From: Phoronis australis | Taxonomy: Eukaryota > Animalia > Phoronida | Direction of reading: 5' to 3' | DNA: 41,387 nucleotides | Assembly (NCBI GenBank): GCA_002633005.1 | Contig: NMRA01000790.1 | Span: 102,136-143,522 of the forward strand | In this document: piece by piece, positions 3,422 to 40,880 of the stretch | Numbering within the stretch: position 1 is the stretch's first letter | Layout: each line of letters opens with the position of its first letter | Notes under the pieces: model-generated | Told to the model about the DNA's origin: nothing | Databases searched by the model: none | Seen by the model: the letters and a program-made list of their open reading frames with translations, nothing else | Position numbers and translations under genes: made by a program

Positions 3422-3787
3422 ATGTTGTTTCTGCAGGTAGTGTGCGTTCAACTGATGAAGTCATTGGTGTCAACGGTGGAAACGTTACTTTGAGGATTAG
3501 TTTTGTTGTGGAGAGTGGTCAACACCTATCATTTATCCAACTGCTTAAAATCTCAGCAAATAGTGAAATATTTAACACTTATTACATCGGTCCACAGGGT
3601 CCAAGTTTTTTTGACGGAGCTTTTAACGTTAACTATTCATCTCGTGCTTCAACTGACTATTCTGCTGGAAAAACCGACTTCACAATCACTTTGTCACAGC
3701 TTACTTCTGATGATGAAGGACAGTACAAAGTGAATGTTTTTTACGAAGCGGACATGGAATCTTCATATACCCGGCTTGTTGTAGACT
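3422..3787 (+). CDS. Exon encoding an Ig V-set-like domain lacking the canonical Cys pair (IgSF surface protein)
   Basis: Acceptor ctcttttgctctttcAG (3421) and donor GTAAGT (3788); 366 nt, phase 1-1. Translation has G-x-NVTL (B strand), FTITLSQLTSDDEGQYKVNV (E-F strand, D-x-G-x-Y motif) and TRLVV (G strand). A second in-frame acceptor exists at ctgcAG 3436. Confidence 0.88.
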
Positions 3788-3857
3788 GTAAGTAGTGTTT
3801 TGGTGGCATGGCTATGGTACTTTGTCGTTTATTTTGCGTCAAAAATAATTGCCAAGA

Positions 3858-6800
3858 TTGTCATTTTTCAATTTTGCAAAGGCTGATGAACTTGCTTTCA
3901 ATATTAGAAATAGAACCAAATATTATTTTATGACATCAGTACCGAACAAAAAGTTAATAACTGACTATGATTGGTTGATGAATTTGAGAAATTGATCTGT
4001 TTGTCTGCCATATTATGTGCGAAATAAATGAAGACTTAACGTATTCATGTTTGCTACAGAATGGAACCTCTAGTTAACTTTAAAAGCGATACCTTGCGTG
4101 TTTATTGTGGAAAAAAACATTTTAGAGACCCACCGCATAGAAATTTGTTTACTACTTTTTGAATCTCCCGCCAGGCACAGAGCAGCTCCGTATGTACCCA
4201 CAGTCCTTTCATTAACTGAGTGGCTATAATATTGGGTAGACTAGGAGTGCATGAAGCATAGAAAGATGCCGTTGAAAACGTTTAAGACAAAATTGTAGCT
4301 TTGATCCTGAGACAGTTTTTTGGGTCTGCGTGCACACGGTCGTTGAGAACGAATGCACCAAGTCCGAGTCTCCGCCCGGCAGGTTTTTTTCAAGAACATA
4401 GCAAGTTGTGAAAATAGGTATATCCTCACATAACTTCATTGATTTCATCGTTTATTTGACGTTTCTCTGCTTCCATCACGTATCCATTTCGCGTTTTCAC
4501 CACCGTCTCGATTTCTATTCTCTATTTTGTTTTTGGTTTCTAGATATCAGTCTCTATGGCGCGTGCTTCATCTGTTGCGTATCGCAATGGACTATTGACC
4601 TACTTACTGCTGACTCCGACTTTGACCTAGGTTAACTCGATTTACTGAAGTCTGACATGCAAATTATAAACGGTTTAGCAATAATTAAGTTAAGTACCCA
4701 CTTTCATTTGCATTTGACGTTGGGAGCGAATGTCGAAATAACGAACACTGTTAAGCATGTAAAGGTTATATTGACGAAAAAACATGTTTCCACTGAATGA
4801 TTATGCGAAAACCGAGAGATTTTGAAACTTGTGGCATTTTCTCGGCTTCGGCAAATCAACAAAATTTCAAATTAGGAATGCGAATTCTCGAGCACGTTTC
4901 GGTGGATTTCACTGAAACTGTCCAATTTTTGTAAATATGTATAACTCTCAAAAACACTGTTTAAACCCTTAAATTTGTTGTACTGCGCCATAGACGAATA
5001 AGACTGCTATTTTTCACAAAAATGGCCTGTGTTTTACGAGCTAATTTGACGTAGGAAACAAACTAATTGAGTACTCAAAAATTTTTAACAGCGTTTTTCT
5101 GAAGATATCGGTAACTTTTCGTTTGAAGAAGGTTTCCATTAAATCGACTATTGGATGTTTATGGCACCTTTGTTAAAAAGGAATCTTTGATTTCAAATTA
5201 GTACCCCAGATATTTCTATTTATAGATTAGAAAAAGGCTGATTAACCACAAGAGCATACATTTTCAGATCGCTCCAGTGACTTCGTTTTGTTTCATTTAT
5301 CGACAAAATATTAAAACATATAACCAGAAGACCAATTCGTCCATCCCAATGATACAATTCACATTAATATCTGACATCTGCAAAGTAGAGAAAAAAAATA
5401 ATTGACTGTCGTGTAGTTACCGGCTGACTGCACGTTTTGTTTTAGCGAGTCATCACCGTGAAATCTGTATTTGCGTGTTCAAAACATTTACGCGACGTTC
5501 CGTGCTCTTACACAACAAATACAGATAGCCAAATCTTTCCGCCGTCAATTAGTATGTTTTTCAAAGTATATTTCCAATTAGGACATACTGAAATTTTGGT
5601 ATGAAAATCTTAAATTTTCGTACTTTTGGACTGGCGTGTATCATACCACTGAAATTCATGTTGACAAAAAGCTCGTGTGATCGTCTATTCAATGCCAGAC
5701 TTTATAATTTAATGTTATTCACGGTGCGAATGCTCGGCTGAGAATATGCGGGCTAGATCTACTTGAAAACAAATATAGCGACGACATTACCGCTGTTGAT
5801 GACACTGACGATTTCTACTCCAGTGATACGGAGTGCTGAAATAGGCCTTGTGCCTTTTAAATTGTGAATTAGTATTTTGTAACTAGTGATTTTTTATCAT
5901 TTGTTAACGAAAACAATAGTACTTGAACATGAAGTTGGCGAGATGAACAAGTCATTCTGGTCTCGATACACACGGAAAATCCCCAACGGAAATCTGCATC
6001 GTGAAACACGACCCGTAGTCAATTTGAGGGGACCTTCGTGCATATTAACTCAATTCTTAACACTATTTACGCATCCTGCTTCTATTGATGATGACAAAGA
6101 AGGCTGACCAGGTACCATTGCATTTCATTTACTGACAATTAGCAGTGGCACTTACATGTATGAACCTTTCACTGTACATGTTTATATCATGCAAGAGTCC
6201 AAGTATGTGGGAAGAGGCCTAACAGTTATTCAACAGAAAGGGAATTTATTGTAGTCTGTCTTGAAACTTTTAACTCATTTCTTTTCTTATTTACAAATTG
6301 ATGACTCATATTTTGTGTTTTTGGTCAAACCTTCACTCTCGTGTATATATTTTCGAATATTTCCAGAATGACTTTATTCTTTGTGATTTTATGAAGACTA
6401 AACGCTGAAATTTCCGTGCAGTTTTATTGTACTGTTTTGCTTCTATGATTTGTTTATGTCTTGTAGTTTCGCTGGTTTTAGAACAATATTATCATGATGC
6501 AAATTTGGGAATTACGGCGTTGTCCCGTTGATCCCAACGTGTTCGAATCTATAGCCCAACAACAAGTTGGATGACCCCTGTAGCCAATATCTTACATGGC
6601 TGGTTAACTCCATTCTGGCATTTATGGTTGGAGGGCCAGCTCTGTTTTGTTCGATAATTGCTCTAATCTCCAATAAGATGGTATCTAGCTTGACTAGGCT
6701 GTGCTGTTAAAAATAGAAGTTAAGTTATAAGAAATTTGAACATAAACCAATAGCAATTCTGAATTCCTGGTCAATTGTTGATCATGTTTGCTTTTTAGAT

Positions 6801-7176
6801 CGCCTATCTACAACCGAAGTTACAACAATCTATTCTTTGGGAACTACCAATTCACTCTGGGTTTGACTTTGTTGACACGTAGTCTGTAATAAACCTGGTA
6901 GATAATTGGCCTGCCTGTTGCCATAACAGGCAAAAGACTGTGCTTGGCAGTAGATTAATTATCACCCTCTACGTCTGGCAAAGTCGCGAGAGAACGCCGC
7001 CGTGTCTGAAGCGATTCCCGATCAACATTTCAAAAATTTCCTGAAGTCTTATTGGCCAGAAAAGTGGGATGATTCTAGACATAAAACTCAATTTAAAAGT
7101 TTACACAACATTCTTTTCCTGCTTGGTTATGAGTTAATGATTAAGTAAAGACGCTTCTGGGCAAAAGTTCGTCAAT
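3858..7176 (+). repeat. Copy 1 of a 2.2-3.3 kb direct repeat (5' part of the V-C2 intron)
   Basis: Starts ttgtcatttttcaattttgcaaaggctgatgaacttgcttt, also seen at 15118 and 20348; colinear to gcttctggg..aagtt..tcaat. Segments at about 4030-4570 and 6510-7005 are absent from copies 2 and 3. Confidence 0.9.
6511..6735 (+). mobile_element. Possible tRNA-derived SINE remnant
   Basis: B-box-like GTTCGAATC at about 6541, followed by about 170 bp of body and a short repeated tail (gaagttaagttataag); segment missing from paralogous copies 2 and 3. Confidence 0.3.
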
Positions 7177-8425
7177 GGTCGCGTTGTAGGATTCTGGATT
7201 TTTTATGTTCTTATGCATAACTAGAAAAGTAATGAAGGCAGAAGTTTCATCTTTGCTGTAGCGATGGTATGGGAACGCATGGAATATTTTAGGCTTGAGG
7301 TGGTCAATGCAACGTAATTTCGTAACATTATTGTACGTCGAACTGTTTTAGAAATGACAGTAACTTTCTACGAGTCTTTGAATACTGCTTCATTATTTTC
7401 TTTTAAGCTTAAATTATCTTGCTCAACTAGATACTTTGAATTCTGAAGTTGTTATATGAACTATCTGCCTGATAGATTACCTTACAAAATGATTGCGGAT
7501 ATCGATTTCTTTGACGTCTGATGACAATACACGCATCGTACGACTGGTAACAATTAACTTGGTCCAGCGTTGTTTTCGGATTTTCATCCAGCTGGACTGT
7601 AACACTGAAACGTCTCTTGACTTGTTTGTGTAAAAGTCGCCCTAAATCTGGAGTTTGACGTCATATTTGTGTTGGTTGGCTGTAACTTTACACAATTCAT
7701 AAGTTCATTCAATTTTACCGTTATGAAATAGTCAAATGGAAGTTGATAAACCGGGGTCAAAAGTTAACTTGAAGTAGCCACTAGAGAACGACCAACAGAC
7801 AATTCTTTGTTTGTTTGGCCAAAGTTCATTTCCTAAGTCATAAAATGATGATTTCCAACTGAGGGTACACACATATATAATAATCCAAATTGGCCGTCTA
7901 AGCTTGATGATCAGTTTGACGTCCCAACAGACCACAGAGGCGACTCAACAAACGACTGCTAGCAGACTGTGACTGGCCTGCTGCTGGTCGGCTACACGAC
8001 CGGTCGTCAAACGATTTCTGACGTGTCGGAAAAAATCTTATTGTGTGTTTTTCTTCCAGAAATATTCTTTTACTGATGGATTAAAACCTATAGTTGTCGA
8101 GACATTTGACTAAATACAAAGACTTGTCGAAAAGTTCTACTATGGTTTGTCATTGCTGTGCTCACATCCTGAACCTGATGGACGGGCCACAATACATTAC
8201 TGTTTTCATGCCGTTGTGGCCCATTTTTTGTTGTGAATAGTGCGTAAAATGTGCACAAATACAGCGCGGTAAGAAATCTACTGAAACGGCACGTTTTACC
8301 ACCCGAAATTGCGTTTCAATGCATGTCAGAATTTTGTGCAAGTGTCAGGGTGACTTTAGGTATCTTCATCAGTTGTAACTAGATTAGTAGCTTGGTGATG
8401 TAATGCGCTTGTTCTCGTTTCGCAG

Positions 8426-8749
8426 TCCGTCCAAGTACACCATCTATATCTGGAGCCCCGACTGAGCCTGTTCTTGGTGGAGCAGCACCAATTGTCCTAC
8501 AGTGTGTAGCCAACTTGGGCAAACCACAGGCATCTATGGTGTGGTCACGTCGGATTGGCAGCGCTGCTTACACGAATATTACTGTGGGTACTTCCAAAAT
8601 AACCAATAACAGCGATGATGGAACCAGTAGCGGCACCAGCGAGCTGACGGTCAACTTGGATGCTGCTGATAACGGTGTACAGTTCAGATGTCAAGTGTCC
8701 AACAGGCAGGCTACTTTGTCAGCTGAAACTGGGGTCATTGAGGTGTCTG
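8426..8749 (+). CDS. Exon encoding an Ig C2/I-type domain with canonical Cys and Trp
   Basis: Acceptor cttgttctcgtttcgcAG (8425) and donor GTAAGT (8750); 324 nt, phase 1-1, in frame with the V exon. Translation RPSTPSISG...IVLQCVANLGKPQASMVW...SELTVNLDAADNGVQFRCQVSN is the CD80-like C2 pattern. Confidence 0.92.
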
Positions 8750-8789
8750 GTAAGTCACTACTTAAGTCGTGTTAAAGCACTTAGTCCTG

Positions 8790-14522: not shown

Positions 14523-14998
14523 NNNNNNNNNNNNNNNNNNNNNNNNNNNNNNNNNNNNNNNNNNNNNNNNNNNNNNNNNNNNNNNNNNNNNNNNNNNNNN
14601 NNNNNNNNNNNNNNNNNNNNNNNNNNNNNNNNNNNNNNNNNNNNNNNNNNNNNNNNNNNNNNNNNNNNNNNNNNNNNNNNNNNNNNNNNNNNNNNNNNNN
14701 NNNNNNNNNNNNNNNNNNNNNNNNNNNNNNNNNNNNNNNNNNNNNNNNNNNNNNNNNNNNNNNNNNNNNNNNNNNNNNNNNNNNNNNNNNNNNNNNNNNN
14801 NNNNNNNNNNNNNNNNNNNNNNNNNNNNNNNNNNNNNNNNNNNNNNNNNNNNNNNNNNNNNNNNNNNNNNNNNNNNNNNNNNNNNNNNNNNNNNNNNNNN
14901 NNNNNNNNNNNNNNNNNNNNNNNNNNNNNNNNNNNNNNNNNNNNNNNNNNNNNNNNNNNNNNNNNNNNNNNNNNNNNNNNNNNNNNNNNNNNNNNNNN
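14523..14998. other. Assembly gap (476 N)
   Basis: Run of N. Left flank is a short repeat (acatgaccgc x2); right flank starts inside a tandemly duplicated unit. Confidence 1.
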
Positions 14999-17470
14999 AT
15001 TCACATATTGCTCGCTAAAAAGATCACGTTTAATAACCAAGACTATAAAATTCGTGTTTATTTGAGCTACCTATTTCCAGTTGCCATTCCTGTACGCCAC
15101 AATCCAATAATCTCTACTTGTCATTTTTCAATTTTGCAAAGGCTGATGAACTTGCTTTAAATAATTGAAACAGAAACAAATATTATTAGATGTCCTCTGT
15201 ACAAAACAAGAAAGTTAATAACTGACTATAATTGGTTGATGAATTTGAGAAATTAAGCTGCTTGTCTGCCATGTTATGTGCTAAATTCGTATGTTGTGTA
15301 TCGCAATGAACTATTGACCTACAGGTGTACTTACGGCTGACTCCGCCTTTGACTCGACTTACTGAAGTCTGACTTGCCAATTATAAACGGTTTAGCGATA
15401 ATTAAGTTAAGCTCCCACTTCTAATACAATTGGCATTGGGAGCGTGTGTCAAAATAACGAACACGGTTAAAGCATCTTAAGGTTATATTAACGGAAAAAC
15501 ATGTTTCCACCGAATGATTACGCGAAAACCGAGATATTTCGAAGACTTGTGACATTTTCTCGGCTTCGGCAAGTCAACAAAATTTGAAATTAGGAATGCG
15601 AGTTCTTCAAAACGGCTCGATGGATTTCACAGAAACTTTCCAATTTTAATAAATATGTATCATTCTCAAAAACGATGTTTAAAGTCCTAGTTTTATTGCA
15701 CTGCGCCATAGACAAAAACGATTGCTATTATTCACAAAAAATGGCTTAAGTTTTACGAGCTAATTTGGCGTAGGAAACAAACTAAATGAGTAATTGAAAA
15801 TTCTTAACAGCCTTGATTAAAGGTATCGGTAAATTTTCGTTTAAACGAGGTTTCATTGAAATCGGCAATGTGGTGTTTGGGGTACCTTTGTTAAAAATGA
15901 AATTTTGATTTAAAAATAAGTATCCCAGATATTTCTATTTATCGATTGGGCTGGTCAACCATAAAAACATACATTTTTCATATCGCTTCAGTGTCTTTGT
16001 TTTGTTTCATTTACCGACAAAATATTAAAACATATAACCATAAGACCAATTCGTCCTTTCCAATGATACAGTTCACATAGACAACTGACATCTGCAAAAT
16101 AAAGAAAAAATAATTAACTCTCGTGTACATGTAGTTTCCTGCTAACTGCGCGATTCGTCTTAGCGAGTCATCATCGCGAAATATGTAATTTGTGCGTTTT
16201 CAAAACATCGGCACATTTACGCGAAGTCCCATGTGCTCACACAACAAGCAAAGATAGCCAAGTTTTTCAGCCGTCCATTAGTATATTTTCAAAATAAATT
16301 TCCAAATAGGACATAATCAAATTTTGGTATAAAAAGTTAAATTTTCGTAGTGATATTCATGATGACGCAAAGTCCGTTTAATCGTCTTTGCAATGCAAGT
16401 CTTTGTATTTTAATGTTATTCATGGTGCGAATGCTCGGCTGAGAATGTGCTTGCTAGCTCTACTTGAAACAAAAAAGCAACAACATCATCGCTGCTGATG
16501 ACACTGACGATTTCTACTCCAATGATATCGATTGCTAACAAGGGATTTTTTGATCATTTATTAATTAATACAATAGTACTTGAACGTGAAGTTGGCGAGA
16601 TGAACAAGTCGGACTGATGTTGATACACACGGAAAAGCATCAACGGAAATATTGTTCGTGAAACAGGACCCGTAGTCAATTTCAGGAGACGGCGGTGAAG
16701 ATTAAATCAATTCTCAATAATATTTACTCATTCTGCTTCTATTGATGATGACAAACAAGGCTAACCAGGCACCCTGGTATTTCATCTAGCGACTGCTAGC
16801 GGTAGTGGAACTTATGAACTTCTCTCTGTGGCTTTTTATATCATACAGGAGTGCACATATGTGGGGATGAGCCCAAAACCTCAGTATTCAACAAAGATTA
16901 ATTTATTGTAGTATTTCTTGAAACTTTTAACTCATTTCTTTTCTGATTCATGATTTCACGGTAAATGTTTACGACTCTTGTTTTGTGTTTTTGTTCAAAC
17001 CTTCACTTTCACGTTTATGTTTTCGATTACTTGCAGAATGACTTCATTCTGTGTGATATTATCAAGACTAAACACTAACAGATGATTTCATAAAGGTGGT
17101 TTAAAGTTAAACCTGGTTTAAACTGGACTTAGACCAGGTTTAAAGATAAACTGCATTTCATAAAGATGGTTTAACTTTTAGACCAGTGGTCTAGTGAAAC
17201 CTGGTTCAACTCCAGTTTAGACCTGGTCTAGGTCAGTTTTTATTTCACCAACGAGGTCTATATTCTTTAGACCTGTATTAAGATCTCAAACCATGTTTAA
17301 CTTTAGACTTGGTCAGACCCAGGTTTAACTATTAAATATGTCAGACTTGCATCCATGGTATAGGTACAACTGAATGATGCCACGGAGAGCATTTGCAACG
17401 GTTTTAGAGCGAAAATGGACTACCGGTATTTTCAATATTCAGTTTTACTATGACACAAGATCAAACGAAG

Positions 17471-17616
17471 CTGGGGCAGATCTAAGATGGGGGGACTGTC
17501 AAGGACTTTTTGAAAGGGGGGCAAGTCAACAATTTGAAAATTATAGATTTGATATCTCTAAAATCAAGGGAAAAAATGGGACTTCGGACCCCTTGAGCCC
17601 CGTGGATCCGCTTATG
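17471..17616. mobile_element. Small degenerate MITE nested in the Harbinger element
   Basis: Ends ctggggcagatcta ... tggatccgcttatg are imperfect inverted repeats of the common caggggcggatcca type, with G-rich and C-rich subtermini. Confidence 0.4.
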
Positions 17617-17739
17617 CGTAGACCAGTATTTGCTGGAGTGTGTCCTGCGGATTTCTCAGAATACGACTGGTCGAGCAGGGCGTCATCGTCGTAAGCGCTA
17701 CGGATTTGACTACAGACAGCATCTTCTGATTCTTCTGAC

Positions 17740-25435: not shown

Positions 25436-25974
25436 GTATGTCGACATTTTAAAAATAACCGATGTGATACTGTAGAGCATTAAATATACAAATGCCGCTT
25501 TCTCGGCAAGTTCTAAGACAGTCGTTTTCTTTTCAACAAACTTGTGTGGTTGCTCCAAACTACAAATCTGTTACGAATTCACTTTTTACATATGAGCTGT
25601 CCTGGGATCACATCTATGCACACATGACTTATGCAGCATTGCTTTAATCGAGTATAATTCTGCTCGAATTATTTTAGCACTTTTAGAAACATTTATTTCA
25701 AATAATTGGGAAATGGTGCAAGGAATTGGGAAACTAGAATATCGTTTAGCTGTAACTCCGACGGTACTGTGCACCGAAGAGTCTTTACTGCGAAACGCTG
25801 TTACCTTCCCTTTATGCGAACTTTGTTTTTATTGATTTTTACTCCGATATATTTATAATCCAAAAATGATAGACTTATAAGAACAGGGATACAGCATAAT
25901 ATAAAATTTTCCCGCGAATCGACTGTCGCTTAAGGAAATGAATAGTTATCGTAGGACTGTATTATGATTTACAG

Positions 25975-26010
25975 ATACCGTAAAGCCAACTGATAATGGA
26001 GAAGGTGGAG
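25975..26010 (+). CDS. Stalk microexon B2 (36 nt): (D)TVKPTDNGEGG
   Basis: atgatttacAG ... GTATGT; phase 1-1, open frame. Confidence 0.75.
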
Positions 26011-26849
26011 GTATGTCAATATTTTAAACGTAACCGATGTGATACTGCAGAGGTTAACATTAAATAGGCAAAATGCCACTTTCTTGGCACGTACATGTAC
26101 TAAGACCGTCGTTTTCTTTCCGACGAAATATGTGAGATTACTCAAAACTGCAAATCTCTTACGAATTCCCCTTTTTTCAGAGGAGCTGTCCTGTGATCAT
26201 TTCCATGTAAAACAGCAGACATAAATTGTGCTGCATCGCTTTAATCCTGTTCGAACTATTTTGGAATTTATTCCGAATGTTTTGGAAATGAACTCCCTCA
26301 ACTACTGTGGCACCCTCTTACAGCAATTTATTTTTGTAGTGCCCCGTTTTCTACCAAGTTCTTTGATTGATCTGCTGGAAATTTACTATAATATGTTCCA
26401 GTTGATAAATAAGAGTACACCTGACCTTCATTTTAATCACGCTTGAAGGAACCTTATAATATTACACAAATGTGTTTCTTTGAATTTACAAATTTGTAAA
26501 ATCCTTACGTTTGTGCTTGGTTGCAAATATCGTCATCTCCAATATATCAGAGGTTATTGTCCTGAAAACTGGCAATTGAATTCTTCTCTTTCCCCGAAGG
26601 CAGAAAGCGCGTTGTTTTCAATGACCAAATGGTTTGGGATGTCAGACTTTATTTCACAAGTCTAACTTTATTACTTTAGAAAAATTCCAGATTTCAATGG
26701 TTTAAAAATACAGGAACTGAAAAATAACTCCAAGAAAGGGCATTCTTCTCGGTTCAAAATTAAAGCGAACAACTTGTTTATTGATTCGATCCACATTTTC
26801 TTGTCTTTGACTGCTGTCGAGAATTTAAACAATTTATCATCAGAAATTA

Positions 26850-29107
26850 AACGGCCCTGGATGTGTTTCAAATCAGGAGTTTTGTTCAATTACGCAACCT
26901 ACGCACACCCGATCCACAGCCAGCATAACACCGCACGGGCGATAGCACATGCCAGTCATTACAACGTATATCCCAACACACCCCATTGTGTTATAAGGTT
27001 AGCTCATGCCTTTGTATTTCATTGGCTATTTGCGTGGATGTCTTCTATGAATTTTTAACAGGCAAACCAACAACGAAATCTGTGATTACAGCAACTCCTA
27101 AAGATTCGAGTAAGCTTAACTTCCAGTTTTATTGTATCATACCGCACACGTCCGGGTCTGTGCTCAGCTGAGTTATAAAAACGACACTACATTCAATGAG
27201 CATGTAGGCAAGGTGTCTAACTGTAAATGAGCATTAACAGGGACGAGGAGGGAATAGTCACGGATTCGACGTGTTTCCGGCAGCTTTTTTGCTTTACTCT
27301 GTTCAGACTTGCTCTTTAATTTGTGATTTAGTTGCCTTTATCTTTACCAGATCAAGCTGATTGCAATTTGAGAAACATCTGGTTATTGATTGTAATTGTT
27401 CACAATGCCCAGGTTTTCCATCGGTCTTGTTTTCTGGATGACAGATTGTGTCGCATTCCATCACGGAAAGACGTCGATGTCTGTGAAGGTTTCATTTTGT
27501 TTACCGTTTTATGTATTTTACAAAAGGCACTTCTGTTAATCGTGTCCTATACATCATCCCTACATCAGTTAACCTCTGATGCTTTTCTGTGTGTCGCATG
27601 CGTACCAAAGTAACCACTATTTACTAAGAAAATGACACTGAAACACAGTCGTCTGTCATTTTTGGTGCAAATTCTCGTTCTCGATCGCCTTCCGGTTGTT
27701 CTCGATCAAAGGTTTGTCGTAATGTCTATGTCTCGTCACCTTTTCATGTTCATTTTACTCAATATACTTACGTCATTCAGATACAAGAGTAACACATTTT
27801 ATTTCTCAAAAGTTTGCCACTGGTTTTCAAGGTCAAGAGTAAGAGAATTAGTACCACTTTTTAATACGTCATTTGCAAAAGAATATAAAGAAATTGTTGA
27901 CATTGAAAACCGTTTATCCCATACGCGTTAAATCTGTTGAGGGAAATACGGCCAAATAATGTTTTCCGTATTCACATGGCCCACTACTTCAACAGTGACC
28001 TCTGTCATTGAAAGTTCAATATTTAGGGCATTGTCGACTCGACGTCGTTAGCTGGTTAGATCACCAATCTTGCGGAAATTAGTTTAACGTTATACAATCA
28101 CTGGAGTGTAAATAGGTCTCAATCGTAATATCTGGAAGTTGATTGTTAATTATATGACGGTTCATTTGCTAAAAATTATATCGTCTGCAACTCAGGTGCA
28201 GATTCCTCGATAATTGCAATACCGAATATTGTTGTTATTTAACTTTTTTCGGGAGATGTTACACGTTCAGTGCAAAGTTACCGCTGTTTTCATCATCGTT
28301 ATCTCTTTCCAAGTAATAAATCGTTACATTTAAACCATTTCTTTTGCTAGAGAAAACTTTTAACCTAACGTGCAAGTACATACATGTAGGATGTGATCTG
28401 CCACGTGAACTGTCTGGGTGAAGAATTTTAAAAATCTGCGGGAAAAATGAAAGAAACTAAGGAATTCGAAGCATCTGGGATACATGTAAAACATCATTCC
28501 GCATATCGACCTTAACCTTCGGTCTCGGACGATACGCGGAACAATGTCTCGTGGGTCATTACTTCATGTACGCCACTCTCGGTACGTTTTGTGTGTATAC
28601 GTGTACAAAGCAATATTCAATACCGCACAATGTAACATGTGATGTAATAGCAGTAGTAATAGCAAATGTTTCTATAAAACTATAAGTATTGTAAAAAGGT
28701 CCCAAACACAAGACATGATTTCACTTACGAGATCAAATCCCGGCAGTACATATGTTGTCATGACAGGTTGAAATATTCACCTGCATGAGATGTGAGTCAT
28801 AAAAGTTAGTGCATGCACAGCCATCGTGTCTCCACATCAAGATTTGGTTTGCATGGCGCCTATCATTACAAGCTGATTACTATAAAAGGTCATTCACTGT
28901 GGTATACATACACAAAGCATACCGAGAGTGGCGAACATGAAGTAGGGTAATATCCTACGAGACATTATCCCGCGTATCGAGCGAGACCGAATTCCATATG
29001 CTTCGGATTCCTAAATGTCTTTCTTTTCTTGGGCAGAATTTTTAAATACCTCACTCAGACTGTTCACGTGTCGGATCACATCCTGTATGTATGTACGTGC
29101 ACCGCAA
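26850..29107 (+). repeat. Duplicated block Y (A3 and foldback); paralogue Y' at about 30505-32677 (A4)
   Basis: Colinear from ggccctgga.gtgtttcaaatc to gtacgtgcaccgcaa. Confidence 0.9.
27062..27109 (+). CDS. Stalk microexon A3 (48 nt): (G)KPTTKSVITATPKDS
   Basis: atttttaacAG ... GTAAGC; 48 nt, phase 1-1; diverged from A1 without indels or stops. Confidence 0.75.
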
Positions 29108-29581
29108 GTTTTCCTTAGCAAAAGAAACAGTCTTAAATATAACGACTTATTAAGTAAAAAGAGTTAACAAAGATGAAAACAACGGTAACTGTGAAAGGAA
29201 CCTGTAATATCTGGAAATAGTTAAATAACAGCAATATTTGATTTTCTGTTTGCTCAGGAATCGGCGCCTGAGTTGCAGACGAAATAATATTTAGCATTTG
29301 AAATCTGAGACGGAACTGTCATAAAATTAAAAGTCCTGTTCCAGATGTTATGATTGGGACTTGATTGCATGTCGAGTATTATTTACACTGCTGCAATATA
29401 CTTTAAACTATTCTTGGAAAGCTTGCTGACCGAACCGGCTAACGACGTCGAGTCGACATTCACCTACCATTTGAACTTTAAATTTCAGTGGTCACTGTTG
29501 AAGTAGTGCAGGAGGTGAATACGGCAAAACATTATTACGTGGCCGTATTGTACTCGACTGATTGAACGTGCGTGGGATAAA
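27913..29581. mobile_element. Foldback / long-inverted-repeat non-autonomous element, unclassified
   Basis: Arms 27913-28600 and 28902-29581 are diverged reverse complements (tttatcccatacgcgtt..aatacggcc versus ggccgtatt..aacgtgcgtgggataaa) with a roughly 300-bp spacer. Truncated second copy at 31424-32677. Confidence 0.8.
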
Positions 29582-29974
29582 TTTGTGTTAGCCAAGTGAA
29601 AATGATACCTAACTCAGGAAACAATTAAGATATAGCATATAGTTTCGTACCCTTATTGTTACTCGATGGGGAATAACAATTTTTTCCGGTCGCCGACGTG
29701 TATACCGTTGTACGGAGGAAAACGTGTTGAATGTGGTGGCATGTATTGTCACACTTGGCATCAACTAATTGAGGCCTTTCAGAAAGAGCCTGATGTCAGG
29801 ACCCTCGTTCATCCAAAGGGAAAGGTGCATGTGCCTTGTGAGCGCGGATCATTTTGGGATGAAGGGGAAATTCTACCTTCCGATCAACATCAATTGCACT
29901 ATCATCCTGTCGCAAGCCCTCATAAGCTCTGCATCAAACACGAACTTTAAAATTAGCTCGTAAGTAAATAACGA

Positions 29975-30322
29975 CATATCTAACCAACGTTTTGGTTTGT
30001 TACTCTAAATCATTCCCAAGGAAACAGTTCACAGACTCAAAACAGGCGACACGGATCAAGAAGAGATTGTACAGGTACACCTCAGGCTCCTCATAAATGA
30101 GGTTATCCATTGATGATTGAATCATGCTGAGCGTTACCTCAATAGAAACATTGGTTCATTTGAGCTCCAACTGTTTTGATTTCTGGTCTCTTTCCTCTCA
30201 CAGTGCATTTTGACGTGTACTTGTACAGTCTCTTCTCTACCTCTGCCACCTGTTTTGATCCTGTGAACAGTTTCCTTGAGAATGCTTTAGAGTAATAAAC
30301 CGAAACGTTGGATAGATACATG
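29975..30322. mobile_element. Penelope-like element remnant: inverted pseudo-LTR pair with hammerhead-like motif
   Basis: Arms at about 29975-30083 and 30211-30322 are reverse complements; motif ccTTGAGAAtgctttagagtaataaaccGAAACGTTgg at 30274-30311. Confidence 0.6.
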
Positions 30323-30686
30323 TATGTTGTATTTTATTTACGCGCTAATTTTATAGTTCGTGCTTCTGTTCTGCATCAAGTAGCCAAAAATAACATTTTG
30401 TGCACTTATGTGAGTGACAAATGATTCGAACCTGATGGGAAAATTTTCAACCTCTTCAGGAGAACTTTTGGACATCTTGAAGGAAATTTCGCATGAGGGT
30501 TTGAGGGCCCTGGAAGTGTTTCAAATCGGGAGCTTTTTAGAATTATGCAGCCTGCGTACAGTCCATGCAAAGCAAGAATAGCACTGTGTGGCACAAGTAT
30601 TGTCAATTATGACAATATATGGTCAGCTGCATGTCTTGACATTTCATTGGCTATTTGAAAGGATGTCTTCTATACAACTTTTACAG

Positions 30687-30734
30687 CACAACGTGCAGCA
30701 CATTCTGTGGATACAGCAACCCCTAAAGATACGA
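30687..30734 (+). CDS. Stalk microexon A4 (48 nt): (T)QRAAHSVDTATPKDT
   Basis: cttttacAG ... GTAAGC; 48 nt, phase 1-1, open frame. Confidence 0.72.
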
Positions 30735-33700
30735 GTAAGCTTGAATTACAGTTTTATTGCATCATACCGCTCTCGTCCGAGTCTGTGCTCAGTTGGGTTA
30801 GAAAAATGACACCGATGCATTCAATGAACATGTAGGAGAGGTGATTAGCTAAAGATGAGCGTTTATCAGGACGAGTAGGGTATAGTCAGAGTGTTGACAT
30901 GTTTCCAGCGGCGATCTTGTTTGTTTTACTCTATTCAGACATGCTCTTGAAGTAATTTGTGTCGCACTCCATCACGGAAACACGCCGATGTCTGTGAAAG
31001 TTTCATTTTGTTTACCGTTTCATGTATTTTACAAAAGTCACTTCTGTTAATCGTGTCCTATACATCATCTCTACATCAGTTAACCTCTGATGCTTTTCTG
31101 TGTGTCGCATTCGTACCAAAGTAACCACTATTTACTAAGAAAATGACACTGAAACACAGTCGTCTGTCATTTTTGGTGCAAATTCTCGTTCTTGATCGCC
31201 TTCCGGTTGTTCTCTATCAAAGGTTTGTCGTAATGTCTATGCCTTGTCACCTTTTCATGTTCATTTTACTCAATATACTTACGTCATGCAGATACAATAG
31301 TAACACATTTTATTTCTCAAAAGTTTGCCACTGGTTTTCAAGGTCAAGAGTAAGAGAATTAGTACCACTTTGAAATACGTTATTTGCAAAAGAATATAAA
31401 GAAATTGTTGACATTGAAAACCGTTTATCCCATACGCGTCAAATCTGTTGAGGGAAATACGGCCAAATAATGTTTTCCGTATTCACATCGCCCACTACTT
31501 CAACAGTGACCTCTGACATTGAAAGTTCAATATTTAGGGCAATGTCGACTCGGCGTCGTTAGCTGGTTAGATCATCAAAATTTCGGAAAATAGTTTAAAG
31601 TAATACAATTGCATTAGTGTAAATAACATTTAACATTCAATTAGGTCTCAATCGTGATATCTAGAACTTGATTGTTAATTATATGACGGTTCATTTGCTA
31701 AATATTATATCGTCTGCAACTCAGGTGCAGATTCCTCGATAATTGCAATATCGAATATTGTTGTTATTTAACATTTTCGGGAGATGTTACACGTTCAGTG
31801 CAAAGTTACCGCTGTTTTCATCATCGTTATCTCTTTCCAAGTAATAAATCGTTACATTTAAACCATTTCTTTTGCTAGAGAAAACTTTTAACCTAACGTG
31901 CAAGTACATACATGTTGGATGTGATCTGCCACGTGAACTGTCTGGATGAAGTATTTAAAAAATATGCGTGAAAAATGAAAGAAACTAAGGAATTCGAAAC
32001 ATCTGGGATACATGTAAAACGTTCCTCGACTGGCGTAGATGAAGTAATATCCCACTCGACATCATTCCGCATATCGCCCTCAACCTTCGGTCTCGGTCGA
32101 TACGCGGAACAATGTCTCGTGGGTTATATTACTTCATGTACGCCACTCTCGGTACGTTTTGTGTATATACGTGCACAAAGCAATATTCAATACCACACAA
32201 TGTAACATGTGATGTAATAGCAGTAGTAATAGCAAATGTTTCTATAAAACTATAAGTATTGTAAAAAGGTCACAAACACAAAACATGATTTCACTTACGA
32301 GATCAAATTCCGGCAGTACATATGTTGTCATGATAGGTTGAAATGTTCACCTGCATGAGATGTGAGTCATAAAAATTAGTGCATGCAAATCCATCGTGTC
32401 TCCACATCAAGATTTGGTTTGCATGGCACCTCTCATTACAAGCTGATTACTTTAAAAGATCATTCACTGTGGTATACATACACAAAGCATACCGAGAGTT
32501 GCGAACATGAAGTAGGGTGATATCCTACGAGACATTATCCCGCGTATCGAGCGAGACCGAATTCCATATGCTTCGGATTCCTAAATGTCTTTCTTTTCTT
32601 GGGTAGAGTTTTTAAATTCTTCACTCAGACTGTTCACGTGTCGGATCACATCCTGTATGTATGTACGTGCACCGCAAAGGTAGGAAAGATGATTAGCTGA
32701 AGATGAGCGTTCATCAGGACGAGTAGGGTATAGTCACGCTGTTGACATTTTTCCAGCGGCCATCTTGTTTTACTCTATTCAGACATGCTGTTGAAGTAAT
32801 TTGGGATTTAACTACCTTTCTCTTTGCAAGATAAATCTGATTGCACATTGAGACGCCAATAGGGCTTTTAAATTGTTCCCAATGCTCAGGTTCCCAATCG
32901 ATCTTGTTTTGAGGAAGAGAATTTACGTCGGATGACAGTGAATTAAATTTCATTCCAATGCCTAAAAATACGGATTAAATCAAGGAAACATGTCGATGTC
33001 TGTAAAAAGTTCATTTTGTTTACCGTTTCACGTATTATACAAAAGGCACTTCTATTAATTATTCATGTCCTATGCAATATATAAACATCCGCGGTTCCTA
33101 AAATAGAAAATGACATTGTCAAAATTTATTGAATGACCTCACTCAGCTCTAGAAGATTCCATTACCTACGTAAGCACTCAAATTTTGACAAATGTCCTTC
33201 AAATCTAAGCCGCTTCTCCTCATTGCAATTGAATTTAAGGGTCCAAGTTTTAACGCATGCTAATCTATCTGCTGGATCGTTTGTAGCATGGTCATGAAAT
33301 TTTGCCTGCTTTCATGTTAGAGAGACCATTGCTACATGTAATCTTGATTATCCGATGTATCCCACTGTTGATGTGTGCCACTGCAACAGTGTTAATTTCC
33401 TTTGTGGGTGCTTAATAATCTTTCAAGCTCCACTATAAATCTCTACGGTGTTTGGCATATGTGTACTAATGAAAGAGAGAGTAGCACTTACCTTTGGACA
33501 TCTAGAATGTACATGTAAGTCAAGGCCTTCTTTACAATTGTATGCTCACACATGTATATGTAGATTCATGGGTGCACTTAGTCGTCATCTCCATGCATCC
33601 GGTTGGCTGGTGTCGGCAGTCTGGTTGGCTGTAACTCTGTCATGGATTTTGGTGAATTTTGTACATATGACGGATTGGATGACACGACCCATTTTCGGGC

Positions 33701-34641
33701 CTATTTTTCTAACCTTGTGGCAACTTGTATAATGTTCTATACCTTGCAGTTCCTTGACATGTGTCCTTTAAATTCGGCATATAAGATTCTGTTATAGAGA
33801 CTACGACACCAACTTATACTGGCGAAATCTGCACCGCCTGCGGCCATTTTTATTTCATTTCGTTATTCAGAGTCCGTCTCTTCAACGATGTTTACGAAAA
33901 TGTTAAGTTAAAACACGTGTATTCCCATGGAGATGGTCACAACTGATGTAGCTTTTTGGACGTGTTCAACTTCAACGGCGCCTCCAATGGCAATGTACCT
34001 CAATTTTTTCCAATTTCCTTGATTTATCTATACGTATTTTGCTGTATGTGTTTTAACTGAAAAGGATACTCGTGACCTTCATTTTGGGACGTGTCCATTT
34101 ATTGTTGTACTTGAAGGATATTTGTGAAATATTGTGTGTTCATGTATTCTCAAGTTTGGCAATACATAGTGCAGGAATGTTGTGTTTTTATCCACCATTC
34201 ACAATGCTTGTGTCGGCAGGTGGAGTTTCACGCATCTGAGCCGTTTGCATTTGGCGGCTGCTCCTTTGCTTGTAATCTAAGTAGCAAAACTTATCGAATT
34301 CCATTGTGGTATTCTGAGTAGGACTTTGTATGAACAAATTTCACAGGTTTTCGTAGATCGTCTTTTGTTGACGAGTTCTTTTTCTCAGCCATGAGGCTGC
34401 TGCAGAGGCAAGCTTTCAAAATCCGGTTGCTGGCGTTGCCTCCAAGTCAAACAAGTAGTCCGGTCAGTGAAGACACCTACATTTACTGAATGCCCTTGCA
34501 AAAACGTTTAATTTCGTTTAGTTTTAACATAGTGCACATGTTACACACTAACCATTCACCACTTGGGCCTTAATTTTCCCTCGAATCGACTTTCACTCAA
34601 GGAAACGAATACTTATCCTAGAACTATACTGTGACTTACAG

Positions 34642-34677
34642 GTACCATAAAACCAACTGGAAATGGCGAAGGTGGAG
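34642..34677 (+). CDS. Stalk microexon B3 (36 nt): (S)TIKPTGNGEGG
   Basis: tgtgacttacAG ... GTATGT; phase 1-1, open frame. Confidence 0.75.
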
Positions 34678-35220
34678 GTATGTCGACATTTTAAAAATAA
34701 TCGATGTGATACTGTACAGCATTAAATAGGCAAATGCCACTTCCTCGGCAAGAACTTAGACAGTCGTTTTCTTATCGACAAACTTGTGTGGTTGCTCCAA
34801 ACTGCAAATCTCTTACGTATTCACCTTTTCCATATGAGCTGTTCTGTGATAATATCTATGCACACATGACTTGTGCTGGATTGCTTTAATCGAGTTTAAT
34901 CCTGTTCGAACTATTTTAGCACTTTTACAACCATTTATTCCAAATAATTAGGAAATGGTGGAAGGAATTGGGAAACTAGAATATTGTTTGGCTGTAACTC
35001 CGAGTGTACTGTGCACCAAAGGGTCTTTACTGTGAAACGCTGTTACCTTCCCTCTCCCTTTATGCAAACTTTGTTTTATTGATTTTACTCTGATGTATTA
35101 ATAATCCAAAAACGATAGACTTTTAAGAACGGGGATACAGCCTAATATAACATTTTCCCGCGAATCGACTGTCGCTTAAGGAAATGAATACTTATCGTAG
35201 GACTATATTGTGATTTACAG

Positions 35221-35256
35221 ATACCGTAAAGCCAACTGGTAATGGAGAAGGTGGAG
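35221..35256 (+). CDS. Stalk microexon B4 (36 nt): (D)TVKPTGNGEGG
   Basis: ttgtgatttacAG ... GTATGT; phase 1-1, open frame. Confidence 0.75.
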
Positions 35257-35624
35257 GTATGTCAATATTTTAAACGTAACCGATGTGATACTGCAGAGGT
35301 TAATATTAAATAGGCAAAATGCCCCTTTCTCGGCACGTACATGTACTAAGAGCGTCGTTTTCTTTCTGACGAAATATGTGAGGTTGCTCAAAACTGCAAA
35401 TCTCTTACGAATTCCCCTTTTTCCAGAGGAGCTGTCCTGTGATCATTTCCATGTAAAACAGCAGCCATGTATTGTGCTGCATCGCTTTGATCCTGTTCGA
35501 ACTATTTTGGAATTAATTTCGAGTGTTTCGGAAATGGACTACCTCAAAACTACTGTGGCACACTCTTACAGCATTTTATTTTTGTGGTGCCTCGTTTTCT
35601 ACCAAGTTCTTTGATTGATCTGCT

Positions 35625-37330
35625 GGAAATTTAGTATAATATGTTACAGTTGAGAAATGAGAGTACGCCTGACCTTCATTTTAATCAAGCTTGAAGCAAC
35701 TTTATAATGTTACACAATTGTGTTTCTTTGAATTTACAAATTTGTAAAATCCTTACGTTTCTGCTTGGCTGCAAATATCTTCTCCGATATATCAGAGGTT
35801 ATTGTCCTGAAGACTGGCAATAGAATTCTTCTCTCTCCCCGAAAGTAGAAAGCGCGTTGTTTTCAATGACCAAATGTTTTGGGATGTCAGACTTTATTTC
35901 ACTAGTCGAATTGTATTACTTTAGAAAAATTCCAGATTTCAACCGTTTAAAAATACAGGAACTATAAATATCTCCAAGAAAGGGCATTCTTCTCGGTTCA
36001 AAATTAAAGCGAACAACTTGTTTATTGATTCGATTCACATTTTCTTGTCTTTGACTGATGTCGAGAATTTAAACAATTTAACATCATTTATCCACGGATA
36101 TTTGGTAAGTTTATCCAACTTTCACCGGACGGAGATGCATTCCTCAGCACATAAGACATACCTCACTGAAAGTGATAGGGCGAGTTGGGTAAACATTACG
36201 ACAACAACAAACAGAACATGTGGAACTCTAAAAGCGTGAAAACGCCAGTCTACAATAGTGTTTGACGGATACTGCGGTATTATTGGGGACAAATAAAACA
36301 GCAAGAATAATATATATTTTAACTAAAATTGCATTGAGAGGCGTCATTCATTTTGGCGGCGACAGGCCGATGAATTATATACGCGACAGAAGCCGGAGGG
36401 AGTGAAATTAAGCCGACGGAGTGACGTCACCCAGGCCATTGAGCTGACCGACTGACGTCAGCAAGGCCAGTACGAAACTGGCCACGCTCCCTCCGCGTCC
36501 GCGATAAAACGGCCCGTGAGATTCCAAATAGGGGGCGGTGCAATACCTGGGGCCAAGGCGGTGCCGAAACGGGTGCAACGAAGGTCTGTAGTGGAGCGGC
36601 GGAGATGGAGTTTGTGCCAACGATGCATATTATATAATAAATACATATGTTCTAGTTGATAAATGAGAGTGCGCCTGACCTTCCTTTTAATCACGCTTGA
36701 AGAAACCTTAAGATATTAAGAATGTTTTCTTTGAATTTACAAGTTTGCAAAATCCTTACGTTTGTACTTGATTTCAAATATCACCACATCCAATATATCA
36801 TAGATTTTTGACCTGGAGACTTGCATTGGAATTCTCCTCTGACCCCGAAAGTAGAAAGCGCGTTGTTTTCATTGACCAAATGGTTTGGGATGTCAGACTT
36901 TATTTCACAAGTCGAGTTGTATTATTTGGAAATATTCCAGATTTCAACCGTTTAAAATTACCAGCATTGAAAAACATCTCCAAGAAAGGGCATTCTTCTC
37001 GGTTCCAAGTTAAGGCGAACAACTCGTTTTATCTATTCGATCCGCATTGCATTTTCTTGTCTTTGAACAAATTAACATCACTTATCCACGGATATTTGGC
37101 AAGTTTATCCAACTTTCACCGGACGGAGATGCAGACCTTAGCACATAAGAAATACCTCGTTGAAAGTGATAGGGCGAGTAAGGGAAAGGTTACGACAACA
37201 ATAAAAAGAACATGCGGAACTCTAATGGCATGAAAACGCCAGGCTACAATAGTGTTTGACGGATATTGCGATATTAATGGGGACAAATAAAACAACAAGA
37301 ATAATATATATTTTAAGTTGCATTGAGAAT
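35625..37330 (+). repeat. Tandem duplication of about 700 bp (about 35625-36338 and 36635-37328) separated by a GC-rich insert
   Basis: Both copies run from atgagagt.cgcctgacctt to gggacaaataaaaca.caagaataatatatatttt..ttgcattgaga. Confidence 0.85.
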
Positions 37331-38125: not shown

Positions 38126-38161
38126 GTGCCATAAAGCCAACTGAAAAAGGAGAAGGTGGTG
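38126..38161 (+). CDS. Stalk microexon B5 (36 nt): (G)AIKPTEKGEGG
   Basis: ttgtgatttacAG ... GTATGT; exon is well conserved although the surrounding intron copy is much more diverged. Confidence 0.78.
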
Positions 38162-40230: not shown

Positions 40231-40453
40231 ACACCTCAAACAGTGTTGGCTTTTTTAAGAAGACAACCCAACCCATCCTGTTTTAGACGTGCGTGATAGT
40301 GGAATTTGGGGGCTGGGAGGATGAGGTCACTTCCAGAATATTGAGCGCAGAGGGAGGTTCACCCGGCAAAATATACCTTGTGTTGGTCTAATTCAATCAA
40401 TTGCAGTCAAAATCTTTCAAGTAAGGCTGCATAATATTGAAATTTTGTTGTAG

Positions 40454-40534
40454 CGTCAGCTGGACGGGACGATACTCCAAACAAAATCGTGATCGGAGCA
40501 GCCTGTGTTGCGATGGCTATGATCTCCACCATTG
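40454..40534 (+). CDS. Juxtamembrane/hydrophobic exon: (A)SAGRDDTPNKIVIGAACVAMAMISTI
   Basis: Acceptor ttttgttgtAG (40453) and donor GTTAAG (40535); 81 nt, phase 1-1; hydrophobic run begins after K. Read-through of the donor gives G then stop TAA (40537-40539). Confidence 0.72.
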
Positions 40535-40848
40535 GTTAAGTCTTCGAAGACATTAGAGAGGGCCTCTGTGAAAACCTTCGTTTGATTTACAGCTGATTTA
40601 CAGTTGTACCACAATTGTCGAAAACAGAAAAACGAAGTTCTCCAAAGTTAAAACAGTATGTCGAGAGTGTTGAGCAAAATGTACGAATTGATAATCTAAC
40701 GTTTATTTTTATTCTTCTTCGACGGGGTTTTGCTTCTTTACTTGCCTGACATCCTTCCTTTGTATGATGTTCAATAGTTACGTGTTCGATGAACGTGTAA
40801 ATTATGATTAGAATTTAGTGTTAAGTGTTTTTTTTGTTATTCCTCTAG

Positions 40849-40880
40849 TTGCTCTGATGATACTTGAAAGTTATTGCTGA
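40849..40880 (+). CDS. Terminal coding exon: (V)ALMILESYC-stop
   Basis: Strong polypyrimidine acceptor ttttttttgttattcctctAG (40848); phase 1 join extends the hydrophobic stretch to 22 aa (IVIGAACVAMAMISTIVALMIL), then ESYC and TGA. Confidence 0.65.

Follow-up and report, generated by a model that had tools for sequence, protein, structure and literature searches.

The window, i.e. the whole stretch of DNA that was analysed, comprises 41,387 nt of Phoronis australis (assembly GCA_002633005.1, contig NMRA01000790.1, positions 102,136-143,522, forward strand). RNA evidence supports the presence of an expressed invertebrate gene for an immunoglobulin superfamily (IgSF) protein of the layout V-C2-stalk-anchor, in which the stalk is encoded by symmetric phase-1 mini-exons. 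The RNA reads stem from three stranded short-read libraries of one study (X1, X2 and X3), of each of which about a fifth was read. Counts separated by slashes refer to X1/X2/X3, and x>y denotes a joint from x to y. The features of the window are the following.

3422..3787, forward strand: V-set Ig exon, 366 nt, phase 1-1 (Pfam, Atlas, reads into C2)
8426..8749, forward strand: C2-set (CD80-like) Ig exon, 324 nt, phase 1-1 (Pfam, Cys/Trp core, RNA depth)
14523..14998, no strand: assembly gap of 476 N, directly 5' of a copy of the A unit
14999..23463, forward strand: A intron-exon unit, recently duplicated in tandem (self-BLAST)
19449..19496, forward strand: stalk exon A1, 48 nt; C2>A1 placed 11/11/0 reads, A1/A2 placement ambiguous
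22700..22747, forward strand: stalk exon A2, 48 nt; C2>A2 placed 18/9/0 reads, A2>B1 6/5/0
23960..36086, forward strand: older duplication of the B-B block (self-BLAST)
25400..25435, forward strand: stalk exon B1, 36 nt; B1>B2 12/14/0 reads
25975..26010, forward strand: stalk exon B2, 36 nt; B2>A3 8/14/2 reads
27062..27109, forward strand: stalk exon A3, 48 nt; A3>A4 4/7/1 reads
30687..30734, forward strand: stalk exon A4, 48 nt; A4>B3 15/17/1 reads
34642..34677, forward strand: stalk exon B3, 36 nt; B3>B4 22/18/2 reads, possibly including sister-gene reads
35221..35256, forward strand: stalk exon B4, 36 nt; B4>B5 20/24/1 reads, possibly including sister-gene reads
38126..38161, forward strand: stalk exon B5, 36 nt; B5>anchor 17/22/5 reads
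40454..40539, forward strand: coding part of the last exon with predicted GPI-anchor signal (translation, RNA read-through)
40540..41387, forward strand: 3' UTR with AATAAA at 41059; its distal part may also draw sister-gene reads

Between the C2 exon and the anchor exon there are nine phase 1-1 exons, four of 48 nt (A) and five of 36 nt (B), which follow each other in the order AABBAABBB and encode 124 residues. This arrangement of AG/GT-bounded segments had been proposed in an earlier note on this DNA and was confirmed by an exon scan and by RNA junctions. All nine exons are flanked by CAG at the 5' side and by GTAAG or GTATG at the 3' side. Their phase-1 frame is open; it is the sole open frame in seven of the nine, with a second one in A4 and B3. 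A1 does not differ from A2 in any letter. When both strands of the window were scanned with relaxed settings, no copy beyond the four A and five B full matches was detected; four weak matches agreed in 28-29 letters of 52 or in 24 of 40. Note that splice signals alone are not diagnostic of a real mini-exon: the stretch from the C2 to the anchor exon contains 94 AG-GT pairs of 18-120 nt, with 32/33/29 in the three length classes modulo 3, and the unrelated 36/48-nt AG-GT windows at 37142, 29037 and 32607 have no junction among the rows listed. The stalk contains 26 Thr and 6 Ser (Ser+Thr 26%). Additional exons or units may be concealed in the 476-N gap at 14523-14998.

The mapping of RNA-seq reads to the mini-exon junctions, a check suggested in the earlier note, yielded GT-AG junctions for C2>A, A>B1, B1>B2, B2>A3, A3>A4, A4>B3, B3>B4, B4>B5 and B5>anchor with 286 reads in total. 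The strand of these nine neighbour junctions is as expected for RNA of the forward strand. The junction tables list 30 joint rows, beyond which there are 43 weaker ones (30 in the 3' half and 13 in the 5' half). Among the rows listed there is no A1>A2 junction, and since A1 and A2 are identical, either eight or nine exons are used. The reads of A3>A4 were displayed as a joint to A1 with the first nine letters of A4 in between, because A4 was outside the mapped stretch. In X1, 73 reads match C2 through its final base and then enter sequence absent from the window, which could lie inside the N gap. A further library, X4 (old contigs), contained repeats only.

The segment 40454-40539 encodes S-A-G, all of them small residues, then a polar spacer of seven residues and a mostly hydrophobic end of 17, followed by TAA at 40537-40539. 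GPI signals are characterized by a small-residue site, a polar spacer, a hydrophobic C-terminus and the lack of a cytoplasmic tail. Judged on this general pattern, the translated tail and the RNA read-through correspond to such a signal, and a GPI lipid anchor is predicted to hold the protein at the cell surface. RNA depths of 27/16/7 at 40588 and 26/20/5 at 40628 show that transcripts continue beyond the TAA. This read-through leaves a GPI-type tail, and the exon 40849-40880, which had previously been taken as the last one, is therefore probably wrong. The postulated product of about 391 residues needs this exon, which is without RNA support; counted without the leader and starting at the first complete codon of V, the read-through protein has 381 residues (390 - 10 + 1). 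It is very improbable that a donor at 40535 is used instead, so that 40849-40880 forms the end of a type I transmembrane protein. An acceptor with a pyrimidine tract does precede 40849, and the joined frame lengthens the hydrophobic run. However, the donor GTTAAG is non-consensus, the depth within the supposed intron is at least as high as the B5>anchor junction count, and the joint 40534>40849 is absent from the 15 rows listed for the 3' half.

The V exon scored 29.5 bits against the Pfam V-set (PF07686, cut-off 26), and its top Atlas clusters were V-set (0.92-0.96). A canonical V domain possesses a disulfide between strands B and F and a Trp in strand C; CD2/CEACAM-type V domains lack this core. 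The V exon, with no Cys and no Trp in 121 residues, does not have it either, and retains the D-x-G-x-Y motif. A single-sequence model (pLDDT 67) contained seven strands and gave no Foldseek match at E <= 0.001. The start of the V exon likely corresponds to the end of a signal peptide. No leader exon was identified in the sequence of positions 1-3380, which gave two weak candidates. The consensus of reads running into C2 agrees with the 3' end of the V exon in 27 of 30 letters (compared by eye). The C2 exon scored 37.4 bits against C2-set_2 (PF08205, cut-off 21) and 0.97 in the Atlas, and contains the core residues Cys26, Trp39 and Cys88. Its RNA depth in X1 is 145-208, composed of mixed sequence types.

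The earlier note had further assumed that any subset of mini-exons can be skipped in frame. With respect to the frame this is correct, as every pairwise forward junction among the exons is frame-preserving and free of stops. The claimed use of up to 2^9 combinations was not found among the joint rows listed, whose locus-specific junctions join neighbours. It is rather unlikely that the nine exons are cassettes of one gene, skipped in many combinations to adjust receptor height. Besides the symmetric exons and stop-free junctions, this model could draw on an X1 count for C2>A above that of the middle junctions, on the 43 weaker joint rows, on an internal CAG in A1, A2 and A4, whose use would trim 12 nt in frame, and on the precedents of CADM1 exons 8/9/10 (PMC5385562) and the STP region of CD46 (PMC7709105). 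Yet a clear skip among the exons of the locus occurs in none of the 30 joint rows listed of 73. Rows resembling skips or back-jumps carry letters differing from the window or reflect exons outside the mapped stretch. The joints 19499>25973 and 22750>25973 were considered as skips from A1/A2 to B3 and ruled out by read arithmetic rather than by read letters; the 11 and 12 reads of the type A>B3>B fit the 9-12 expected from A4>B3>B4 alone. The junction counts of X1 are uneven (29, 12, 8, 15, 17; chi-square p 0.004), which could be caused by partial skipping, by a sister gene or by mapping loss, each being sufficient, whereas those of X2 are even (p 0.57). If rows are ranked by reads, any single unlisted joint in the 5' half has at most about 11 reads over the three runs, compared to 49 for C2>A; for the 3' half this limit is looser, at about 26 reads. 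Minor skip isoforms are possible. Since each locus-specific junction listed links neighbours and the diversity seen originates from exons outside the window, the idea of a height adjusted by skipping was not borne out; it is likely that stalk length differs between sister genes.

The same libraries contain related transcripts with a C2 domain at least 92% alike, other stalk exons and a different anchor exon. This suggests several genes of one family, with stalk arrays that differ in the DNA. The locus likely belongs to such a family. At four listed positions of C2, letters differing from the window were found in 58-77% of the reads of X1 and X2, and in 100% of those of X3. X1 contains at least four distinct C2 3' ends (by eye), some of which are joined directly to B-type exons. 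The reads also include B-type exons of 36 and 30 nt and a second anchor exon, which retains S-A-G (by eye); all of these are absent from the window stretches compared. Other arrays in the RNA reads show that the number or type of units varies among transcripts, i.e. between genes or alleles. One might regard the variants as alleles of one very polymorphic locus in pooled animals and the arrays as length polymorphism between individuals. In agreement with this explanation, the RNA departs from the window even in locus-like reads (25413, 27069, 40588, 40628), and the C2 letters of X3 are almost exclusively non-window ones. What makes it unlikely are the four or more C2 3' ends of a single library, wholly unlike over their last 13 nt, the diverged second anchor exon, and the nearly equal variant shares of X1 and X2 (63%/61% at 8463; 77%/73% at 8559), as expected of stable gene copies.

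Self-BLAST revealed that stalk exons were duplicated along with their flanking introns. The A units 14999-20204 and 20233-23463 are 94-95% alike, and a 1.15-kb block around the A exon differs by 4.2% between the copies. The B-B blocks 23960-26842 and 33278-36086 are 88% alike by BLAST (7.8% substitutions), which makes B1/B3 and B2/B4 sister pairs. Altogether, stalk units differ by 4-27%. The duplicated blocks are rich in repeat fragments. A comparison of exon and flanking-intron divergence, likewise suggested in the earlier note, showed that exons diverge about as fast as their flanks (0/48 versus 49/1153, Fisher p 0.26; 6/72 versus 216/2774, p 0.82), and sequence conservation was dropped as a proof of the exons. 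Of the contrast drawn there between exons free of stops and indels and indel-rich flanks, the open frames persist, whereas the lack of indels is a weak argument with only 0.7 expected in the compared exons (P(0)=0.48). For the A exons pN is close to pS and for the B exons it is mostly below pS, on very few sites.

An expressed gene for a V-C2 IgSF protein with a predicted GPI anchor, likely serving adhesion or recognition, with a stalk of about 124 residues spliced in genomic order and likely a member of a family, is the reading that we consider probable. All stalk exons are phase 1-1 and multiples of three, so that the frame should survive unequal crossing-over. Such events could add or remove units, so that genes or alleles would come to differ in stalk length by their DNA itself. 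Rich in Thr, Gly, Lys and Pro, the stalk may be a flexible, partly O-glycosylated spacer under little sequence constraint. Its length would set the height of the V domain above the membrane (an extended stalk would reach about 30 nm at most) and might decide whether a partner is bound on the same or on another cell, as in fly DIP-alpha (PMC12135937). Given the missing cytoplasmic tail, signalling would require a co-receptor. The steps concerning spacer constraint, height and binding, and only these, would be replaced if symmetric units duplicated unopposed and stalk length was not tuned. The fact that exons and introns diverge equally fast, and the repeat fragments in the duplicated blocks, agree with such a neutral process. 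It is nevertheless doubtful, because both splice sites are kept in all nine copies, of which at least eight are used, because sister transcripts also possess in-frame stalk exons, and because pN is below pS for most B exons, few sites as these are.

With this locus, the Ig genes of invertebrates gain an RNA-supported case, likely a whole family, where the visible variation lies in the spacer rather than in the Ig head and where the spacer consists of duplicable exon units. A far-reaching version, namely an undescribed set of GPI-anchored invertebrate Ig receptors with near-identical heads and a kit of stalk mini-exons exchanged among genes through unequal recombination, plus cell-type skipping, is improbable. 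If true, stalk length would join the binding face as a recognition code, acting as a cis/trans switch in self/non-self or neuronal recognition.

The CADM/nectin layout comprises three Ig domains together with a transmembrane segment and a cytoplasmic tail; the locus has two Ig exons, C2 is joined directly to the stalk, and the stop follows right after the hydrophobic run. As in CADM1 and CD46, short exons encode a juxtamembrane stalk under extracellular domains; both of those stalks are O-glycosylated, and that of CADM1 adjoins a C2 Ig domain (PMC5385562, PMC7709105). However, in CADM1 and CD46 the stalk exons are few, their alternative splicing is proven, and a transmembrane segment and a cytoplasmic tail follow, in contrast to nine duplicated exons, no tail and no skip among the 30 junction rows listed here.

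Muc13, SmPoMuc and BG genes already exemplify the principle of one exon per stalk repeat. In chicken Muc13, each stalk repeat has its own exon, and the authors raise recombination and splicing for length variation (PMC1552070). Muc13 is described there as a transmembrane SEA-domain mucin with near-identical 20-residue repeats, whereas the array here combines two unrelated units, of 16 and of 12 codons, between Ig domains and a predicted GPI tail. The multigene family SmPoMuc of Schistosoma mansoni contains a 27-bp exon in tandem 1-kb units (PMC2576457). Both systems share the repetition of a small exon with its introns and an assembly break in the array; unit number differs between SmPoMuc genes, as arrays differ here between genes or alleles. 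That source reports no Ig domains, units more than 93% alike and transcripts with 1 to 100 repeats, unlike the more diverged units and the listed transcripts in genomic order found here. Chicken BG genes also form a V-type Ig multigene family with short repeat exons (21 nt), copy-number change and hybrid genes, but what their repeats encode is a coiled coil on the cytoplasmic side of the transmembrane segment, in contrast to the extracellular array of this locus (PMC4046983). Schistosome MEGs resemble it in their very short symmetric exons and gene families; micro-exons make up to 75% of their coding sequence and skipping has been shown (PMC4015677), whereas the mini-exons account here for 372 of 1148 nt, or about 32%.

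The Dpr/DIP proteins of Drosophila are GPI-anchored multigene Ig families, and Dprs have two Ig domains (PMC10863630, PMC12135937). The disordered linkers of DIPs vary from 52 to 161 residues across paralogs, and linker length governs cis binding (PMC12135937). The P. australis locus resembles them as a likely invertebrate multigene Ig family with a predicted GPI anchor, and as linker length can decide between cis and trans in flies, its members would lend themselves as a series to tests of how receptor height shapes recognition. Unlike in Dpr/DIP, the C2 sequences of the placeable family reads are alike to at least 92% and V is without cysteines; no Dpr/DIP chain, and hence no sequence relationship, was found among the 47 PDB matches for V or the best 60 of 116 for C2.

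A V-C2 Ig family with a mini-exon stalk appears to be undescribed: the literature covered, in which most subscription papers are not included, contained no description. Searches of 5.8 billion proteins, of limited sensitivity, identified no relative among longer proteins for V and C2 (0 of 377 and 0 of 785 candidates), which illustrates that standard annotation loses such genes. A metagenome scan gave 597 pattern matches, none confirmed, and Rfam gave no match. Among 152 proteins checked from a search of 1.84 billion representatives, none gave a match to the V exon with E below 0.01. This search yielded 269 matches, mostly multi-Ig proteins via summed weak stretches, and the best single-domain match was 47% alike. 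UrIg2, which the search results name as a shark gene, was dropped (E 0.028 only). The best named single-domain match of C2 is from an annelid (38-40%), and its top Atlas cluster is molluscan, based on two records. For an intronic ORF, the named matches include an annelid and a fish.

The exons at 3422-3787 and 8426-8749 were assigned by Pfam to the V-set and C2-set, respectively, both exceeding the cut-off, and the Atlas look-alikes agree with these assignments. The V domain contains neither Cys nor Trp; the Cys-Trp-Cys core is present in the C2 domain. The interval between C2 and the anchor exon contains four A exons of 48 nt and five B exons of 36 nt in the order AABBAABBB.

Exons of the gene (all on the plus strand)
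3422-3787: V, V-set exon
8426-8749: C2, C2-set exon
19449-19496: A1, stalk exon
22700-22747: A2, stalk exon
25400-25435: B1, stalk exon
25975-26010: B2, stalk exon
27062-27109: A3, stalk exon
30687-30734: A4, stalk exon
34642-34677: B3, stalk exon
35221-35256: B4, stalk exon
38126-38161: B5, stalk exon
from 40454: anchor exon

All nine small exons have CAG/GT borders and an open phase 1-1 frame, and sum up to 124 codons; a relaxed scan of the window for A and B copies detected no tenth one. Due to their length of 36-48 nt, they are mini-exons if microexons are limited to 27 nt, and microexons by the looser definition of 51 nt. The stalk contains Thr (26), Gly (19), Lys (14), Pro (10) and Ser (6), and the translated 124 codons contain no N-glycan site. 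Use of a CAG located 12 nt inside A1, A2 and A4 (19461, 22712, 30699) would shorten these exons to 36 nt in frame; the joints listed for the RNA libraries include none to this site.

Reads from three raw short-read libraries of one study, labelled with the same species (X1-X3, about 19% of each), were aligned to positions 21400-41387 and 8320-28300 of the window; positions 1-8319, including the V exon, lie outside both stretches. In all junction reads the first mate maps to the minus strand, as expected for plus-strand RNA. The nine junctions between neighbouring exons are covered by 286 reads in total.

Reads across neighbour junctions (X1/X2/X3; > marks a splice junction)
C2>A: 29/20/0
A2>B1: 6/5/0 (one of two possible placements)
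B1>B2: 12/14/0
B2>A3: 8/14/2
A3>A4: 4/7/1
A4>B3: 15/17/1
B3>B4: 22/18/2
B4>B5: 20/24/1
B5>anchor: 17/22/5

These junctions confirm that the phase-1 A and B exons postulated in the earlier note are real. A1 and A2 are identical in sequence, and an A1>A2 joint has four possible placements; none is among the joints listed for X1-X3, so that eight or nine of the small exons are used. On reads entering C2, a V-like end matches the V exon of the window in 27 of 30 letters, as judged by eye.

The arguments drawn from the sequence alone proved weaker than the earlier note held, and the RNA is decisive. The exons are indeed free of indels, but this is weak evidence, as it is expected with P=0.48 at the intron rate. 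Sister copies differ about equally in exons and flanking introns. Moreover, 94 acceptor-donor pairs spaced by 18-120 nt exist between C2 and the anchor exon, and multiples of three are not favoured among them.

Whereas exons and splicing are thus backed by RNA, the proposed combinatorial skipping and the spliced end at 40880 are not. No clear skip between exons of the window was found among the best 30 of 73 joints (the best 15 per aligned stretch; 30 weaker ones belong to 21400-41387 and 13 to 8320-28300). If joints are ranked by reads, the weaker ones are capped at about 11 reads each in the 5' half, corresponding to at most 18% of C2 donors, and at about 26 each in the 3' half. Two joints resemble A>B3 skips, but their read counts (11 and 12) equal the 9-12 predicted from A4>B3>B4 for an aligned stretch that lacks A4 and B4. 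Two observations count against a reading without skipping: junction counts are uneven in X1 (p 0.004), though not in X2 (p 0.57), and 73 X1 reads run from the last base of C2 into sequence absent from the window. The latter may stem from a sister gene or lie inside the assembly gap of 476 N (14523-14998).

At the 3' end, read depth in X1/X2/X3 is 27/16/7 at 40588 and 26/20/5 at 40628, which reaches the level of the B5>anchor count, and the listed joints include none from 40534 to 40849. The last exon consequently continues to the stop codon TAA at 40537-40539. The protein of about 391 aa proposed in the earlier note is thereby replaced by a read-through form of 381 aa, counted from the first whole V codon; a leader, which was not found, would be extra. 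The stop directly follows a hydrophobic end, ahead of which lie a polar spacer and, before that, small residues. This is the layout of a GPI signal, and the C-terminus is predicted to be of this type.

The reads further point to related transcripts. C2 depth in X1 is 145-208 reads, compared to about 26 at the 3' UTR of the window's gene, and at four listed C2 positions other letters occur in 58-77% of X1 and X2 reads and in all X3 reads. In X1, four or more C2 3' ends can be told apart by eye, and some of them are spliced straight onto B-type exons. Further stalk exons in the reads are of B type: one of 36 nt that differs from B4 at six positions and one of 30 nt. B exons are also joined in B-B-B orders that differ from those of the window, and a second anchor exon occurs in which S-A-G is kept. 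These variant stalk and anchor transcripts cannot stem from skipping inside the window. They derive most simply from paralogs, or possibly from strongly diverged alleles if the animals were pooled. In X3, nearly all C2 reads are of non-window types (61/61 and 91/91 at two sites within 8426-8749), and few junctions of the window's locus occur. With paralogs as the source, expression of the family members thus differs between samples.

Self-comparison of the window indicated that the copied unit is a whole intron-exon unit. Divergence is lowest between A1 and A2 (4.2%), the most recent duplicates, and higher for the older duplication of the B-B block (7.8%); A3 and B5 stand furthest apart from the other copies, their flanks having diverged by 17-33%. 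Because 36- and 48-nt phase 1-1 exons come and go without frameshift, unequal crossing-over could change stalk length freely. From the V-C2 intron, a stretch of about 3.3 kb (3858-7176) recurs collinearly, at 77-91%, upstream of A1 (15118-19316) and A2 (20348-22576), a hint that sequence was rearranged inside the gene or exchanged among members of the family. These copies have almost no RNA reads and may be either a silent repeat or a family intron that recombination has relocated. At 32680-33285, the intron that follows the exon in the A units is present a fifth time, without an A exon ahead; this copy begins about 60-100 nt past the expected exon end, and possibly an A exon was lost.

The gene product is likely a surface adhesion or recognition protein. 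Its V domain would bind a partner, and the stalk would set the height of V; at 0.25 nm per residue, an extended stalk might reach up to about 30 nm. A neutral drift of stalk length is a less likely alternative, and a recognition code of stalk lengths, created by recombination and cell-specific skipping, is more improbable still. The stalk works like those of chicken Muc13 (PMC1552070) and SmPoMuc (PMC2576457), which have one exon per repeat, and there is also a resemblance to chicken BG (PMC4046983), where repeat exons and hybrid genes occur. The stalk exons of CADM1 (PMC5385562) and CD46 (PMC7709105) are alike in position, but differ in that their alternative splicing is proven. Membership in CADM/nectin was rejected, as was membership in MEG (PMC4015677) and, on the matches listed, in Dpr/DIP. 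Database homolog searches yielded no close protein relative, and the literature searched, which omits most subscription papers, contains no description of such a family. The best candidate from another data set for membership in the family is P0042, an unnamed ENA record of 80 aa, which is 47% alike to C2 and closely resembles it at the C-terminal end. Weak evidence points to a marine invertebrate, perhaps a lophotrochozoan, as the host.

The introns contain further elements. Inside the C2-A1 intron, broken ORFs lie in series on the minus strand (9868-13638). For the longest of them, at 383 aa, there are 199 homologs with up to 73% likeness across most of the ORF; almost none of these is named, and Pfam gave no match. 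No terminal inverted repeat was found for the run, which is probably a decayed mobile element. The ORF fragments 8785-9336, 18131-18790 and 23504-23809 gave no match in Pfam and resemble pieces of non-LTR retrotransposons. Two related repeats (27913-29581 and 31424-32672; about 70-75% alike, with reads on both strands) form a nested, inverted pair within the A3-A4 and A4-B3 introns. In the B4-B5 intron, 37273-37628 is covered by 500-900 reads on the opposite strand that have many mismatches to the window and loose ends on either side; this piece copies part of a transcript that is strongly expressed at another locus.
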